From Candidatus Sigynarchaeum calidifontis (GTDB taxonomy: Archaea > Asgardarchaeota > Lokiarchaeia > Sigyniarchaeales > Sigyniarchaeaceae), in contig JAUQYZ020000155.1 in assembly GCA_030587475.2 (NCBI GenBank), positions 1-23,480 of the forward strand: a stretch of 23,480 bases of DNA, read 5' to 3'. The position numbers and the translations under genes were made by a program. The notes beneath the pieces are model-generated. The model was not told where the DNA came from. It was given only the letters and a program-made list of their open reading frames with translations, and made no database searches. Below, piece after piece: positions 16,228 to 22,218 of this stretch. Position 1 is the first letter of the stretch. Each line of letters opens with the position of its first letter.

Positions 16228-17193
16228 ATGGTTGAACCGGTTAGACACGCAGAATTTGCTGGTTCGTGGTATCCAGGGCGTAAAGATACGCTTGAACGCA
16301 TGATCGAGACATGTTTTTGTTCCACGTTCGGTCCCGGCTCGTTACCGAAGCGCGGGAAGCCCGCGGGACCCGGCGGTTCGCTCGTCGGCATCATGTCCCC
16401 TCACGCTGGCTACACGTACTCGGGTGGCGTCGCTGCTAACGGTTACTCCGCGATCGCCCAGGACGGCATTCCGGACACGGTCGTTCTCATCGCCCACCAC
16501 GGCGGCTTTGATAGCATTTATTTGCAAGATAAAGGCGCGTGGGAAACACCACTCGGTACAAGTATCGTGGATGCGGACGTGGCTAGCAAGATCGCTGCCG
16601 TGGCCAAAGAAATACGGGTTGATAGCCACCGTGTCATCTCGCTCGCAGACAACACGTTCGAGCTCCAGTTGCCATTTATCCAATACTTGTCGCTCGATAC
16701 CAGCATCGTGCCGATCGCGGCCGGCTCGCGGACCTACAGCAAGATCAAGGCAGCCGCGGGCGAGCTCGCGGCCGGGCTTGCATCCTTCTTCACGAAAGAT
16801 GCAAGCAAGAAGGTAGTTATTGTTGCATCCACGGATCTCACGCACTATGGGCTGCTCCACTTTGGCTTCGCGCCAGCACATGGAAAACCCGCGAAGGATC
16901 AGAACGCATGGGTTCGGGCCAATGACAGCCGCGTTTTGACAATGATTGAGAAGTTGGACCAGTATGACACGGCCGACATCCTCGCCGAGGCACTCGCCAA
17001 CCAGAACTTGTGCTGTCCCGGCGCGATAACGCTGGCGATGGAGACCATGAAGCAGCTCAAGGTGAAATGCGGTTTTTCCGGCTTGAACGTCCGCTTGCTC
17101 AAGCAAGCGACCAGTTACGACGTCGAACCCCGCGGGGAGGGTGCAGCCTTCTCCGCGGTCGGTTACGCGTCAATTGCGATAACACGCACTTGA
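16228..17193 (+). CDS. MEMO1 family protein (AmmeMemoRadiSam system protein B), divergent
   Basis: R...FAGSWYP, PHAGYTYSG, WETPLG, ELQLPF, VASTDLTHYG, ATS.DV, VGYASI motifs. Confidence 0.9.
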   Translation: MVEPVRHAEFAGSWYPGRKDTLERMIETCFCSTFGPGSLPKRGKPAGPGGSLVGIMSPHAGYTYSGGVAANGYSAIAQDGIPDTVVLIAHHGGFDSIYLQDKGAWETPLGTSIVDADVASKIAAVAKEIRVDSHRVISLADNTFELQLPFIQYLSLDTSIVPIAAGSRTYSKIKAAAGELAAGLASFFTKDASKKVVIVASTDLTHYGLLHFGFAPAHGKPAKDQNAWVRANDSRVLTMIEKLDQYDTADILAEALANQNLCCPGAITLAMETMKQLKVKCGFSGLNVRLLKQATSYDVEPRGEGAAFSAVGYASIAITRT

Positions 17194-17214: not shown

Positions 17215-17754
17215 ATGAGAACATCAAGTGTCAGGCTCATCAGGAAATTGGTCGGGATCGTATTACTCGTGATCAACACGACCTTGTCGCTCATGAGCGC
17301 CCTTGCCATGTACAGCATCGTGGAATTCGCGAGCGATGCCGACAATTATGATTTCAATGTCGCCAGCCCGATCACCTATAATTTTACTATCTCGCCAAAC
17401 GGTTACATTAATCTCGGCAGTATGACGATCAACAACACGGGACTTTTCGATTTCAACGACTTCGAGATACGATTCGAATTCAACAACCAGACCAACGGCG
17501 GCCTGGTACGCCTCTTGTCATTCAACGGAAGTTTCGGCGACGTGCCTGCAGGCGAGAAAAAAGTCCTAGATCTCACGCTGAAAAACGACACGGTATCAAG
17601 AAAGTCCTTGTGGGTGAATCCTGCATTAAATGACATGTCCACGATCAATCCAGCAAACGTATCTGGATTCCTGGAAGTGACAGGGAAATACGTTCTGGCT
17701 TTGTTCCGGTTTGATTTCAGGTTCACGAATCTCTCGCTATGGACTTGGACGTAG
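17215..17754 (+). CDS. Hypothetical membrane-anchored protein with extracellular beta-rich domain
   Basis: N-terminal TM helix, then a beta-rich region (INNTG.F......I....DVPAGEKK) with many N-x-S/T sequons; GGAGGA upstream. Confidence 0.7.
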   Translation: MRTSSVRLIRKLVGIVLLVINTTLSLMSALAMYSIVEFASDADNYDFNVASPITYNFTISPNGYINLGSMTINNTGLFDFNDFEIRFEFNNQTNGGLVRLLSFNGSFGDVPAGEKKVLDLTLKNDTVSRKSLWVNPALNDMSTINPANVSGFLEVTGKYVLALFRFDFRFTNLSLWTWT

Positions 17755-17762
17755 TGATTGCT

Positions 17763-18299
17763 ATGGGAGCAGCAAAGAACATCTTCTCGGGCGTTGTCTC
17801 GGCCGCCATTTCCCTCGCCACGTACGTGATCATCCCGTGGATCGGGCTGACGGTCGCCAAGAGCTTGACGATTCCCATCGAGAGCGGCTTCACGATCGAC
17901 CTTTTCCGGCAAAAGATCGATGACATCCTCTTTTATATCATCGCCATGGGCATCATTCAGGTTGGCATCGCATTCGCGAAGGGGAGCTCGCCCAAGTACT
18001 CGAAACGAAGGGCCATCTTTTCGCTTTTTAACTTTTTAGGGGCGGCCTCGTATTCCTACATCATTAAATTCTCTGGCCTCTCGCGCATCCCCATCACGGT
18101 CACGAACATCGGGGAGATCACTGTTTCACTCGATGCATTTGTGTATTTCGTGTTTGGAATCGTCGTGCTGAATTCCTTACTAGCTATATTCGATTTAATC
18201 ATCGCCATCAAGGATCAGCGGAATAAAATGGTCTATTCCCTCGATGAAGTACGCAAGCAAGAGATGATCGCAGCCGAGAACCTGGGGGTGAAGGCATGA
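17763..18299 (+). CDS. Hypothetical 4-TM membrane protein
   Basis: Four hydrophobic segments, tightly coupled to its neighbours; start 17763 or 17739. Confidence 0.75.
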   Translation: MGAAKNIFSGVVSAAISLATYVIIPWIGLTVAKSLTIPIESGFTIDLFRQKIDDILFYIIAMGIIQVGIAFAKGSSPKYSKRRAIFSLFNFLGAASYSYIIKFSGLSRIPITVTNIGEITVSLDAFVYFVFGIVVLNSLLAIFDLIIAIKDQRNKMVYSLDEVRKQEMIAAENLGVKA

Positions 18300-18970
18300 T
18301 GAAGAAAATCAAGGTCGCAGCATGTTTCCTGGCACCATTGACGTGCTTCGCGCAAGCATCGCTCCCGCTCTCGCTTATGCAGGCTGTTAACTCTATCCTC
18401 GGTTTCCTTCGCCCGGCCATGCCGTATATCTCCAGTTTTCTCGGTTTTTTCGCGTCATTCCTCATCCCGCTCGGCGAATTTTTCGGGACATTGCTCCAAG
18501 GGCCATTAAACGCCTTGAGTGAAGCGATACCGGCGCGCAGCGTCACCGGTTACGCGTTGTATTTCGTGATTTTCGGGGCAATCCTCGTCGTTGCCATGTA
18601 CTTGAACGTGGTATGGCGTCCCCTTGGCTATGCGACGTCGGATAGTCGCGCCAAGCGGGAAGAAAAGGAGGCGAAAGAGGCCGAGCGAGAAGCCGCCAAG
18701 GAAGAAGCCAAGGCTCAACGCAAGGCCAAGCGAGAAAGTACAAAGAGAAAGCCTGCCGAAAATATCGAGGTAACCGTGCCAGACAAGGCTGGATCTGGCG
18801 AGAAAATCACTGGCCAAGCGCCAGACAGCATTAAACCATCGTCCGTTCCTGAACCTCCGATCAAGGTCGTCACGGAGAAGGATATCGAAAAGTCCGAGCA
18901 AGTGGATAAAATTGATGATGCAGATAAGGTTGACGCGAAAATGGATGAACAAGGTAGCAAGAAAGACTGA
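18296..18970 (+). CDS. Hypothetical membrane protein with charged low-complexity C-terminal tail
   Basis: ATGA overlap with the upstream stop; TM helix (YALYFVIFGAILVVAMYL) followed by a K/E/A-rich helix and a disordered tail. Confidence 0.7.
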   Translation: MMKKIKVAACFLAPLTCFAQASLPLSLMQAVNSILGFLRPAMPYISSFLGFFASFLIPLGEFFGTLLQGPLNALSEAIPARSVTGYALYFVIFGAILVVAMYLNVVWRPLGYATSDSRAKREEKEAKEAEREAAKEEAKAQRKAKRESTKRKPAENIEVTVPDKAGSGEKITGQAPDSIKPSSVPEPPIKVVTEKDIEKSEQVDKIDDADKVDAKMDEQGSKKD

Positions 18971-18972
18971 AA

Positions 18973-19008
18973 AGGTGCCGAGAAAGGCATCTGTTTCAAC
19001 TTCTTTTC
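18973..19008 (+). terminator. Hairpin plus T-rich terminator closing the MEMO1 operon
   Basis: ggtgcc-gagaaa-ggcatc followed by tgtttcaacttcttttc. Confidence 0.4.
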
Positions 19009-19037
19009 ATCAATGCTTCGTGATCACGTGATCCCCC

Positions 19038-19526
19038 GTGATCACGCGGCTCGATCGAAAGAGCGTCGTCGTGACGTCGCCGGGCGAGGAGGGCGGGCAC
19101 GTCTTGCGGGGCCGCGACATCGACACGCTCGACCTCGTGGCCGAGTTGGATGTCAAGCAATCCGCCGCCAAGCCCACTGCCGCCGTGTTAGCACGGGCCC
19201 TGGAAGACATGGGACAAGAAGCACTAGACGAGCAGCTCAAGGAGCCTGGCGCGTTCTTCGGCTTCGACTATGTCAAGCAAGTATGCGATGGCTGGTTCGT
19301 CACGTGCCAGAGTTACGACGGGAACGAGCACGTCGTCGACATCCACGCGAAACCGTGGAAATTACATCAAATCTGGCCGAATCATTTCCCTTGGTTCAAG
19401 GGAGTGTACTCGCCCGACGGGACGATGTTCGCGTGGGCCGAGGAGAACAAAGTGCTCGTCCGTGCGGTCGATCCGAGTCGCGAGCAGCCGTCTTACCAGC
19501 GGATCTTGTCCCGCGGGTGCGTTTAA
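19038..19526 (+). pseudogene. Probable gene fragment (beta-propeller/WD40-like remnant) or short hypothetical protein
   Basis: GC-rich, coding-like codon usage; YSPDGTMFAW...VLV is a propeller-blade-like motif; no convincing start and too short for a propeller. Confidence 0.4.
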
Positions 19527-19628
19527 GCACTGAAAGCCCTTAACACCGTTTTATTCCACCAAGATCGCGATGTACCGGGAACCGCCGCATATTTATTCCC
19601 CTAAAGTAAAGGAAATACGTGAACCATC

Positions 19629-20804
19629 ATGTGCGCATCCTCAAATCTTGAGCCAATTCGCAAATATGCATTCATTTGTGCTCGCTGCAATTCATGCAAG
19701 GGAATATACCATAATGGTGAACCCGATGCATATATGGAATGTTGTCCTGGAGGTTCATATTATGTATTCGAGCCATATTGGGCAAGCGGAAAAAACCTCA
19801 TAGCACGGGCTCTGATGGAGAAGGAATACGAGATGACCGAATCGACCGTGCAAATAATCTATTCTTGCATTCTCTGCGGAAATTGCCAGGAGCAATGCAT
19901 GCAAGACGTGAGTGATCACTTGGTCGAGGTCTTCGAGGCATTACGCGCGGAAGCTGTGGATAGCGGCCTCGGCCCGCTGCCAGCGCATAGAACATTCAAG
20001 GACAACGTCGAAAAAGTGGGCAACCCGTATGGCGAGCCCACGGACCAGCGCTTCGCCGAGGAGCATGTCAAGAAACACGTGAGGGACAAGGCGGAAGTCG
20101 TGTATTTCATGGGCTGCACGGCGGCGTACCGGGAAAAGGATCTCGTCAAGCACACGATCTCCGTGCTGGAAAAGCTGGGAACCGATTTTGCCATCCTCAA
20201 GGACGAGACTTGCTGTGGATCTCCTTTGATAACCACGGGTCAGGTCGCCGCGGCAAGATCCCTTGCAGAAAAGAACATTGCTGCGATGACGAACGCTGGT
20301 GCCAAGCTCGTCGTCACGTCATGCGCGGGCTGCTTCCGAACGTGGGCAAAACAATACGAGACAAAATTCGGCTTGAAGTTACCGTTCAAGGTGCAGCACA
20401 TTACGGAATACATCAAGGACAACATCAAGAAGCTCGCGATCAAGCACCCGAAGCAGCGGATCAAGGTCACCTACCACGATCCGTGCCACCTCGGCCGCCA
20501 CGGCGGCGTGTACGAGGCGCCACGCGATATCCTGAAGAAACTGCCTGGTGTCGAGCTCGTCGAGATGCCGCGCAACCGGAAGAATGCGTGGTGCTGTGGT
20601 GCCGGGGCGGGCGTGAAGTCCGCCATCAAGGATCTTGCATTGGAGACGGCAAGGAAACGCATCGTGGAGTCCGAACAGACGGGTGCAACAGTCCTGGTAA
20701 CTGCATGCCCGTTCTGCGAACGAAATCTCGGTGATGCCATCAAGGCATCGGGATCCAAACTCGTCATGAAGGATATCATTGCCCTGGTCGACGAGATGAC
20801 CTAA
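19629..20804 (+). CDS. (Fe-S)-binding oxidoreductase with two CCG domains (HdrD/GlcF/GlpC-like)
   Basis: CARCNSC...CP and CILCGNCQEQC ferredoxin-type motifs; YFMGC, ETCCG, TSCAGC, TYHDPCHLGR, WCCGAG, TACPFC. Confidence 0.9.
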   Translation: MCASSNLEPIRKYAFICARCNSCKGIYHNGEPDAYMECCPGGSYYVFEPYWASGKNLIARALMEKEYEMTESTVQIIYSCILCGNCQEQCMQDVSDHLVEVFEALRAEAVDSGLGPLPAHRTFKDNVEKVGNPYGEPTDQRFAEEHVKKHVRDKAEVVYFMGCTAAYREKDLVKHTISVLEKLGTDFAILKDETCCGSPLITTGQVAAARSLAEKNIAAMTNAGAKLVVTSCAGCFRTWAKQYETKFGLKLPFKVQHITEYIKDNIKKLAIKHPKQRIKVTYHDPCHLGRHGGVYEAPRDILKKLPGVELVEMPRNRKNAWCCGAGAGVKSAIKDLALETARKRIVESEQTGATVLVTACPFCERNLGDAIKASGSKLVMKDIIALVDEMT

Positions 20805-20819: not shown

Positions 20820-20884
20820 CTCATGCTTTCGTGAACCATGCAGCAATGCTTTTCTTTCTCGGCATGATACTTTATTCATCCACG

Positions 20885-21370
20885 ATGAATGCCACAAAAG
20901 CATCGAACCGCATCGACGAGCTCGTTCCAAGAGAAATGCTCCGCGACCTGCCTGGCTGGTCGATCGCCCCCGTTCCCGCTTGCCACGGGGGTGACCCGCG
21001 TTCGCTGACCTTTTGTTGCCATCCGGGTTACGCGCTCACCTTCGCCGCCACGTGCCAGCGCGATGCCTTGCTCGAAAAGGTGGGCTTGTCCAAGGCCGAA
21101 TTCATCCGCATCAAGGACGCGTTTTCCAAGGCGCACGACTGGGATGACGAACGCACGTGTTTCGGGAGCTTGTCGTATTGCTGCATGAGAGCAGGTGGTT
21201 GCCCGGGAAACCGCGACCAAGTGCTTCAAGAGAAATACCCAGACAAAAGCTGGGAGGAGATAAAAGCTGTCTATTTCTCCCTCAAGCAGAGGTTGAGCCT
21301 GGAATTGCTCAAGGCTTGTAACAACAAGGCTCTAGTCCAGCCATTCATCGATATCGAGGAATCAAGGTGA
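20885..21370 (+). CDS. Methanogenesis marker 9-like Cys-rich domain protein
   Basis: W..AP..ACHGGD.R.LTFCC.P ... GLS..EFIRIK..F ... TCFGSLSYCC....CP..RD matches the marker-9 pattern (C.GGD.R.LAFCC, TCFGSL.WCC). Start uncertain (20831 GTG or 20885 ATG). Confidence 0.75.
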   Translation: MNATKASNRIDELVPREMLRDLPGWSIAPVPACHGGDPRSLTFCCHPGYALTFAATCQRDALLEKVGLSKAEFIRIKDAFSKAHDWDDERTCFGSLSYCCMRAGGCPGNRDQVLQEKYPDKSWEEIKAVYFSLKQRLSLELLKACNNKALVQPFIDIEESR

Positions 21371-21423
21371 TGTTCCCGTGGAACCGGAAATCAAAATCGT
21401 TAACCTTTTTTCTCAAAACTTGA

Positions 21424-22218
21424 ATGATGTTCCACGTGGATCCAAACGAAAGATCCTTGCTTGCCGCGATTGAAACCACCGCATCATGGATCGTCAATGC
21501 CCATCACGTCGTGATCTTCACCGGGGCCGGAATATCCACGGCGTCGGGCATCCCCGATTTTCGCGGCCCGGACGGTGTCTGGACTCGCCGCGATAAGGGA
21601 TTGCCGCCCCCGGCATATAAAGTACCCCCGGATCAGGTCAAACCGAATGAGGGGCACATGGCAATCGTGGAGCTTGAAAAACTCGGCAAGGTACAGTTCC
21701 TCATCAGCCAGAACGTCGATGGCTTGCACGTGGAATCCGGGTTCCCGGTCGAAAAGCTCGCGGAGCTCCACGGGAACAAGCACCTTGTCAGGTGCCTTGG
21801 GTGCGATGCCGTTTTCAGGAAGGCAAAGGTCGGTTGGAACGAGCTCGTGCATGGTAACGGGTATCGCACCGATCGCGAACGCCCGAACCAGCCACGATGC
21901 CCGGAATGCGGCGGCCGGCTCATCTCCTCCATCGTGAATTTCGGCGATCCCCTTCCCGAAAAAGACCTCGAGGAATCCGTTCGTCATTCGAAACAGCTAT
22001 GCGACCTTTTCATCGTCCTCGGCTCGTCTCTTGTCGTGAACCCGGCAGCTCGCATGGTCGCTCTCGCAAAACACCATGGCGCGAAGCTCGTGATCAATAA
22101 CAAGGGCACTACACCCTACGATAAGATCGCTGATATTCTTGTTCCGAATCCCATCAACGACTTCTTCCCACCCGTCGTCTCGCGTGTCCGCGAGCTGCTG
22201 AAGAAACGTGAACCATGA
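21424..22218 (+). CDS. Sir2 family NAD-dependent protein deacylase, class IV (SIRT6/7)-like
   Basis: [38 protein letters not shown]/CPEC zinc site, GSSL, [8 protein letters not shown]. Confidence 0.92.
   Translation: [264 protein letters not shown]

Follow-up and report, generated by a model that had tools for sequence, protein, structure and literature searches.

A compact SIRT6-like class IV sirtuin gene in an Asgard archaeal genome

SIRT6 and SIRT7, the class IV sirtuins, have been regarded as a eukaryotic type, and a gene in the genome of Candidatus Sigynarchaeum calidifontis raises the question of what such an enzyme is doing in an archaeon and where it came from. A sequence-only reading of the window (the whole stretch of 23,480 nucleotides analysed here) had proposed a SIRT6/SIRT7-type sirtuin, possibly an archaeal precursor of the eukaryotic enzymes acting on tailed histones, and had left open whether such homologues were already described. 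They are: Asgard class IV-type sirtuins have been published and in part bench-tested (10.1101/2021.11.30.470311; 10.64898/2026.07.02.735847), and the 264-aa sirtuin is one more orthologue. The subfamily bears on how eukaryotic chromatin regulation arose, and the main value of the present case is one of caution, as the SIRT6-like architecture turned out to be a widespread prokaryotic type common to bacteria.

Class IV architecture of the 264-aa sirtuin

The sirtuin ORF (21424..22218, forward strand, as are all features below) is complete and intact, and encodes 264 aa plus a stop, a predicted class IV-like Sir2 NAD+-dependent protein deacylase in which the catalytic and zinc residues are complete. 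Its Pfam match to Sir2 (PF02146) scored 116 bits vs a cut-off of 24. In an alignment of 23 class IV-like sequences, the GAGIS NAD+-binding motif (G34-S38, 21523..21537) was invariant at G34, A35, G36, and S38 and nearly so at I37; T33, R47, and W53 were invariant, together with Q96, N97, and D99 of the QNVD motif (Q96-D99, 21709..21720), the catalytic His116 of ELHGN (21769..21771), and the zinc cysteines C124, C127, C159, and C162 (C124-x2-C127 ... C159-x2-C162, 21793..21909). Between its cysteine pairs the zinc module carries a 31-residue insert (GW..G.GYRT..QP.C), which in the same alignment was common to most Asgard and bacterial members and absent from the eukaryotic ones. The GAGIS and QNxD motifs, the catalytic His, the four zinc cysteines, and the Rossmann fold place the protein in the Sir2/sirtuin superfamily. 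An A/T-rich stretch, cgttaaccttttttc, was read by eye 12-26 nt upstream of the ATG (21398..21412) and is a possible candidate for the gene's own promoter element.

The helical module of other sirtuins had been described as missing, and this was borne out by the profile match, the motif spacing, and the structural model. The Pfam SIR2 match fell into two pieces, covering profile positions 1-26 and 55-180, and positions 27-54 stayed unmatched, so the profile segment covering the helical module is missing. In place of the module, both the sequence and the model have a short linker from R47 to H78, ending in KPNEGH (21562..21657), with 19 residues from T54 to K73. The distance from GAGIS to QNxD is 62 residues, equal to the median in archaeal, bacterial, and eukaryotic class IV sirtuins, vs 78-98 in the non-class-IV sirtuins examined. 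Sir2Af2, Sir2Tm, and CobB (class U/III) are of similar overall length and share the Sir2 fold and chemistry, but in the non-class-IV sirtuins examined the linker is extended by about 16-36 residues, and from N to the catalytic His there are 17 residues in the outgroups vs 19 in the class IV rows, His116 lying 19 residues past N97. In the AlphaFold2 model built from the 23-sequence alignment (mean pLDDT 93.8, pTM 0.89), the region between the FRG motif and the PN..H helix consists of a single short helix (52-57) and a loop, with no helix bundle.

A HMMER search of all PDB chains gave human SIRT6 as the best match (E 1.4e-48, residues 20-247 against SIRT6 40-263), followed by Sir2Af2 (1.8e-41), Sir2Tm (3e-33), SIRT7 (4.9e-31), SIRT5 (4e-24), SIRT3 (2e-23), and SIRT1 (3e-20), with SIRT7 scoring lower than Sir2Af2. 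The strings that the sequence-only reading quoted are present in the protein, and the SIRT6 strings it set beside them agree with this alignment. Foldseek against the PDB returned SIRT6 for all of its top 33 matches, at a TM of about 0.80 and an identity of about 38-39% in the structural alignments, and Sir2Tm, Af1, and Af2 chains at a TM of 0.62-0.72. SIRT6 (PDB 3K35, 3PKI, 8G57) is therefore the best match by both sequence and fold, and its linker differs by a single gap; its full-length chains have 355 aa vs 264, about 90 C-terminal residues being without counterpart here. SIRT6 has no helix bundle, and its second cysteine pair spans a longer loop bearing the nucleosome acidic-patch arginine. 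In the 264-aa sirtuin, by contrast, the second pair is a canonical CxxC, and the insert between the pairs differs from SIRT6. Vertebrate SIRT7 (PDB 9GMK) has the class IV core in common with the archaeal protein, although it is a weaker match than SIRT6 (4.9e-31 vs 1.4e-48) and lies inside the eukaryotic clade.

A placement in class III/U, which the sequence-only reading had named as evidence against itself, was not seen. All seven NCBIfam CobB-type models (NF001753, NF040867, and others) stayed below their cut-offs, the best scores being 199.6 vs 243 and 196.4 vs 320, and the protein is for this reason put outside class III/U; every one of these models matched it in two or more pieces. The genome encodes three sirtuin paralogs. 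The other two found their best PDB matches in Sir2Tm and Sir2Af2/Af1, as ordinary Sir2Tm/Af2 types, and SIRT6 was not among the best 60 PDB matches of either. The sequence, model, indel, and paralog evidence taken together established the class IV architecture as genuine and as confined to this one of the three paralogs; its class IV features cannot be due to chance.

The protein thus belongs to class IV by its short linker without helix bundle, by resembling SIRT6/7 more than it does classes I, II, III, or U, and by its grouping in the tree described below. In NCBI CDD, model cd01410 stands for a class IV group with eukaryotic and prokaryotic members. The 264-aa sirtuin is not a SIRT6 or SIRT7 orthologue proper: it falls in the prokaryotic sister clade (98/99), has no terminal extension of the kind that serves them in nuclear or nucleosome targeting, and differs in the zinc-module loop. 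With an exact ORF, a short linker, SIRT6 as best match, and Asgard sequences as nearest homologues, the proposal of a class IV sirtuin in an archaeon was confirmed.

A compact prokaryotic subfamily and its probable function

More than 7,800 homologues were scored in 90% clusters, in which Loki-, Hod-, Hermod-, and Promethearchaeota reached 60-83% identity and named bacteria (Actinomycetota, Acidobacteriota, Myxococcota, and Thermoanaerobaculia) 57-61%; bacterial relatives overall were 50-61% identical to the 264-aa sirtuin, and the nearest large ESM Atlas clusters were mostly bacterial. When one genome per species was scanned, at least 591 stretches encoding the family turned up. Among the matches listed were the Asgard lineages Loki, Hod, Thor, Hermod, Heimdall, Hel, Jord, Borr, and Frey, and outside Asgard one Bathyarchaeia as well as Acidobacteriota, Polyangiaceae, Rubrobacter, Dehalococcoidia, Desulfobacterota, Spirochaetales, and Pseudomonadota. 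Compact class IV relatives were present in 114 of the 301 Asgardarchaeota genomes sampled and in 39 of the 90 of high quality, with a patchy distribution by family within the phylum (58/68, 22/28, and 6/6 vs 0/76 and 0/19). The bacterial forms (Acidobacteriota, Myxococcota, Dehalococcoidia, Desulfobacterota, and others) have the same length, linker, and N-to-His spacing, and mostly the same insert; they form one clade with the Asgard sequences (98/99), although their hosts are without histones and the Asgard members have a sub-clade of their own (89/64). Judged by these homologues, the protein belongs to a prokaryotic class IV subfamily of compact enzymes (about 250-265 aa) that many Asgard lineages have in common with many phyla of bacteria. 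The view of class IV as a eukaryotic type did not hold up, since the same compact form is widespread in bacteria; a review likewise reports bacterial class IV sirtuins, mainly in Streptomyces, whose species are said to carry class II and class IV (PMC8603916).

One member of this type has been studied at the bench. A 2026 preprint ('Emergence of histone-based chromatin complexity in Asgard archaea'; 10.64898/2026.07.02.735847) gives an account of three Loki-B35 paralogs, of which LoSIR2b is reported to have deacetylated Loki histone-tail and yeast H4K16ac peptides in a NAD+-dependent manner; it was the most active of the three on histone-tail peptides, its activity was comparable to that of SIRT1 in a fluorogenic assay, and Asgard SIR2 chimeras rescued a yeast sir2 deletion. 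LoSIR2b (GNAMCCOK_01652, Lokiarchaeum ossiferum B35) has the same compact architecture, short linker, and zinc-module insert as the 264-aa sirtuin, with QPN.GH in the linker and WGNGYRT...QP in the insert, unlike LoSIR2a and LoSIR2c with their long linker. Over the diagnostic region, a 75-aa stretch of LoSIR2b was 75% identical to the 264-aa sirtuin (P0001) without gaps; the formal alignment is confined to this fragment, taken from the preprint's supplementary table, as LoSIR2b is absent from our sequence pool. By this likeness in sequence the two enzymes are of the same type, although LoSIR2b comes from a different Asgard lineage and is a measured histone-tail deacetylase, while the present protein is known by its sequence. 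In its accessible text the preprint leaves the sirtuin class of LoSIR2b unstated; our analysis ties the bench-tested enzyme explicitly to the class IV architecture, a link that is not made there.

We infer activity and substrates from the sequence, motifs, fold, family placement, and distribution observed above. The protein is very probably an intact, catalytically competent NAD+-dependent protein-lysine deacylase with SIRT6/7-like architecture, which belongs to the compact prokaryotic class IV subfamily of LoSIR2b type. A Rossmann domain is combined with a zinc module of four cysteines, and the small domain has no helix bundle. From the conserved residues and general sirtuin chemistry, the interdomain cleft would take up acyl-lysine and NAD+, His116 would serve as the general base, nicotinamide would be released, and the acyl group would move to ADP-ribose. 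The enzyme would likely strip acetyl, and possibly longer acyl, groups from cellular proteins. By analogy with LoSIR2b, its substrates may include lysines at histone N-termini.

The protein ends at residue 264 with no SIRT6/7-like N- or C-terminal extension, so any targeting must lie in the core. A PF00808 search of the genome gave six clear histone genes of HMf type with products of about 69-80 aa (contigs C50, C205, C257, C82, and C116 of G000; L089-L094) and two weaker histone-fold matches on C174 and C53. Their N-terminal extensions are at most about 12 residues (MKTDKKSEDRV..., MAKKKALAW...), and no long Lys-rich histone tail was found by this search in the 89%-complete genome, so a histone-tail role here is uncertain. 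Alba is encoded in the genome. The suggested action on tailed histones is thus backed in vitro for LoSIR2b by the preprint, but tails of that kind were not found in the 89%-complete host genome. One survey also reported that sirtuins of class IV lacked significant activity on the small peptide substrates it used (PMC10652111).

The strongest alternative is a general metabolic protein deacetylase, acting for example on AMP-forming acyl-CoA synthetases, as bacterial sirtuins do, with no special link to chromatin; we put it at slightly below even odds. The subfamily is abundant in histone-less bacteria at 50-61% identity, and the insert in the zinc module is kept there, which points to a general function and not to one specific to nucleosomes. 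According to the same review, Streptomyces SlSrtA and CobB1 deacetylate Acs/Aacs, their class being unstated (PMC8603916). The neighbours of the gene encode a CCG/HdrD-TfrB-like protein, a marker-9-like protein, a membrane protein, and a hydrolase, that is, redox and membrane functions; no chromatin gene adjoins the sirtuin, and neighbours vary between relatives. Together with the lack of a long-tailed histone in the 89%-complete genome, the neighbours and the insert shared with bacteria therefore make a general protein deacetylase at least as likely as a chromatin-specific one. On the other hand, it was on histone-tail peptides that LoSIR2b outdid the other two Loki paralogs, the place of the Streptomyces enzymes in this exact subfamily is only presumed, and metabolic and chromatin roles can coexist.

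Phylogeny and the origin of SIRT6/7

The phylogeny was inferred from 103 catalytic domains with IQ-TREE (LG+C20+F+G4, PMSF). The rows comprised the 264-aa sirtuin and six named Asgard relatives, 42 named prokaryotic species representatives, three fused prokaryotic forms, 32 representatives from a plant SRT1 search (at most 50% mutual identity), seven other eukaryote-type sequences including plant SRT1, four vertebrate SIRT7, and eight outgroups. The prokaryotic rows were drawn from the best matches to the 264-aa sirtuin, and the outgroups consisted entirely of prokaryotic sequences (class U/III-like, SIRT4-like, and fused forms), with eukaryotic classes I-III absent. SIRT7 was sampled from vertebrates only, with a 78-aa bait fragment that matched human SIRT7 records at 100%. 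In the plant SRT1 search none of the best 150 matches scored below 225 bits, and the ten looked up by name included diverse eukaryotes. Six of the eight name-checked tree representatives were eukaryotic (Balamuthia, Willaertia, Thecamonas, Pterocystis, Riccia, and Planoprotostelium), and all 32 rows from this search fell in the eukaryotic clade. Eukaryotic sampling was gained in this way, and no prokaryotes closer to the eukaryotes appeared among those best 150 matches.

In the 103-row tree, class IV (95 rows) split from the prokaryotic-only outgroups at 100/98, and the grouping with SIRT6/7 that the sequence-only reading had proposed to check by a maximum-likelihood tree was therefore recovered against these outgroups. 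Eukaryotes formed one clade (100/99) with SIRT7 and plant SRT1 inside, and prokaryotes formed its sister clade (98/99). Within the prokaryotic clade the bacteria were paraphyletic, with Asgard nested among them; the archaeal sub-clade held 29 rows, including one from Spirochaetales, at 89/64. The 264-aa sirtuin grouped with Sigyn, Loki, and Hod sequences at 100/100. In the first tree the bootstrap was not fully settled. Without the outgroup, the eukaryotes were again monophyletic (100/100) on a long stem of 2.8, which joined among Dehalococcoidia/Desulfobacterota-type bacteria, and nine bacterial and 28 archaeal rows made a clade at 100/100.

A second alternative concerns descent: eukaryotic SIRT6/7 could be vertical descendants of this Asgard enzyme, and the bacterial copies secondary transfers. 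We consider this unlikely, although several observations are consistent with it. The subfamily occurs in many Asgard lineages (114 of the 301 genomes of the phylum), and the archaeal rows form a single, near-exclusive clade. An Archaea+Eukaryota clade was not rejected by the AU test (p 0.189 with the outgroup and 0.199 without), the tested clades having been named after the first tree was seen. A published tree also has a well-supported sister relation between eukaryotic SIRT7 and a Heimdall/Loki sirtuin clade (Grau-Bove et al., 10.1101/2021.11.30.470311). Against it, both of our maximum-likelihood trees put the eukaryotes outside the prokaryotic clade, with bacteria paraphyletic and Asgard nested, and without the outgroup the eukaryotic stem lay among bacteria, and the clade of nine bacterial and 28 archaeal rows was fully supported. 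Eukaryotic proteins scored equally high against archaeal and against bacterial members (a median of about 155-175 bits in either case), and among the 301 genomes no Asgard family stood markedly nearer (33-45% identity) to a eukaryotic member that evolves slowly. The zinc-module insert is present in most aligned Asgard and bacterial members but not in eukaryotic ones, and the distribution within Asgard is patchy, with none in two of the families (0/76, 0/19). A clade of Archaea with vertebrate SIRT7 was rejected by the AU test (delta lnL 123, p 9.5e-5).

The trees thus give no positive support for a specific Asgard origin of SIRT6/7, and the suggestion of an archaeal precursor was not upheld: Asgard nest among bacteria and the eukaryotes lie outside both, yet the AU test leaves the alternative standing at p 0.19-0.20. 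A fuller scenario appears somewhat more doubtful still: SIRT6/7 would descend vertically from an Asgard enzyme of LoSIR2b type whose action on histone N-termini predated eukaryogenesis, and ancient transfers from archaea to bacteria would have given rise to the bacterial copies. Because the architecture is common to bacteria, its presence in an Asgard genome is on its own no evidence for an archaeal origin of SIRT6/7 or for a histone-directed function.

Two candidate relations to SIRT7 were tried separately. SIRT7-specific sisterhood was rejected in this data set, in which SIRT7 is from vertebrates only (AU p 9.5e-5), and the protists P0134, P0143, P0131, and P0130 were rejected as SIRT7-like, since each has a better match in SIRT6 than in SIRT7. 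Inside the Asgard sub-clade nest two outsiders, L050 (Bathyarchaeia) and L058 (Spirochaetales), which suggests occasional transfer out of Asgard, or binning errors.

Side activities, genomic surroundings, and related forms

A further alternative is that the enzyme is mainly a long-chain defatty-acylase or a mono-ADP-ribosyltransferase, in line with the side activities of SIRT6, and this we regard as improbable. SIRT6, the closest solved relative, has these activities described, and the structure of Sir2Af2, which ranks second among the PDB matches, contains a myristoylated peptide. The JGI names of some homologues read 'mono-ADP-ribosyltransferase sirtuin 6', but such names are automatic transfers, and deacetylation by LoSIR2b was robust, at a SIRT1-like level in the fluorogenic assay.

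That the gene comes from contamination, or was acquired very recently from a bacterium or eukaryote, is scarcely credible: bacterial homologues do reach about 60% identity, but the nearest homologue is from Sigynarchaeum (87%), followed by Loki-, Hod-, and Hermodarchaeota, the relatives at 71-87% identity are all Asgard, the GC content is even across the region and the same as in the gene's surroundings, a 71%-identical Lokiarchaeia contig keeps the synteny in part (CCG protein, sirtuin, and convergent hydrolase), and the sirtuin nests in the supported Sigyn/Loki/Hod clade (100/100). Contamination and recent transfer were rejected on these four grounds (GC, nearest relatives, synteny, and tree position), which support a gene native to the archaeal genome and an archaeal host. 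The sequence-only reading had named recent transfer and contamination among the findings that would speak against it; neither was seen.

A conserved operon or chromatin neighbour was rejected as well. The 68%-identical relative has unrelated neighbours, and no functional linkage emerged from the gene's own locus and those of the 71%- and 68%-identical relatives. Directly upstream of the sirtuin, the ORF at 20831-21370 (+) has no Pfam match and resembles methanogenesis marker 9 (TIGR03277; E 2.3e-19, 69.6 bits, below the cut-off of 96.2). It is preceded by an ORF for a CCG-domain Fe-S protein (19629-20804, +), whose best match is of TfrB/HdrD type (242 bits, below the cut-off of 385). Between this CCG gene and a Memo-like gene (16228-17193) sit four successive same-strand ORFs (17215-19543, +; 179, 186, 224, and 176 aa) with no Pfam family at E <= 0.001.

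Several other forms were observed among the homologues. Tandem pairs of class IV-like sirtuins occur in several genomes of the host's order (G276:C29:28126-29718; G282:C323:18475-20069; G243:C190:72314-73957; G210:C9:775435-777150), and one copy in two tandem pairs has in-frame stop codons. Long class IV sirtuins fused to the chromatin or ubiquitin reader domains YEATS (PF03366), zf-CW (PF07496), and zf-UBP (PF02148) were found in P0130, P0132, P0131, P0133, P0135, P0138, P0139, and P0140, two of which are EukProt records and the rest metagenomic. Among P0122-P0126, P0150, and P0152, some long forms carry the class IV-like domain at the C-terminus behind a Pfam-less region of 230-290 aa, and three of these C-terminal-domain forms nest in a Dehalococcoidales clade of the tree; two other proteins combine VWA domains with the sirtuin domain.
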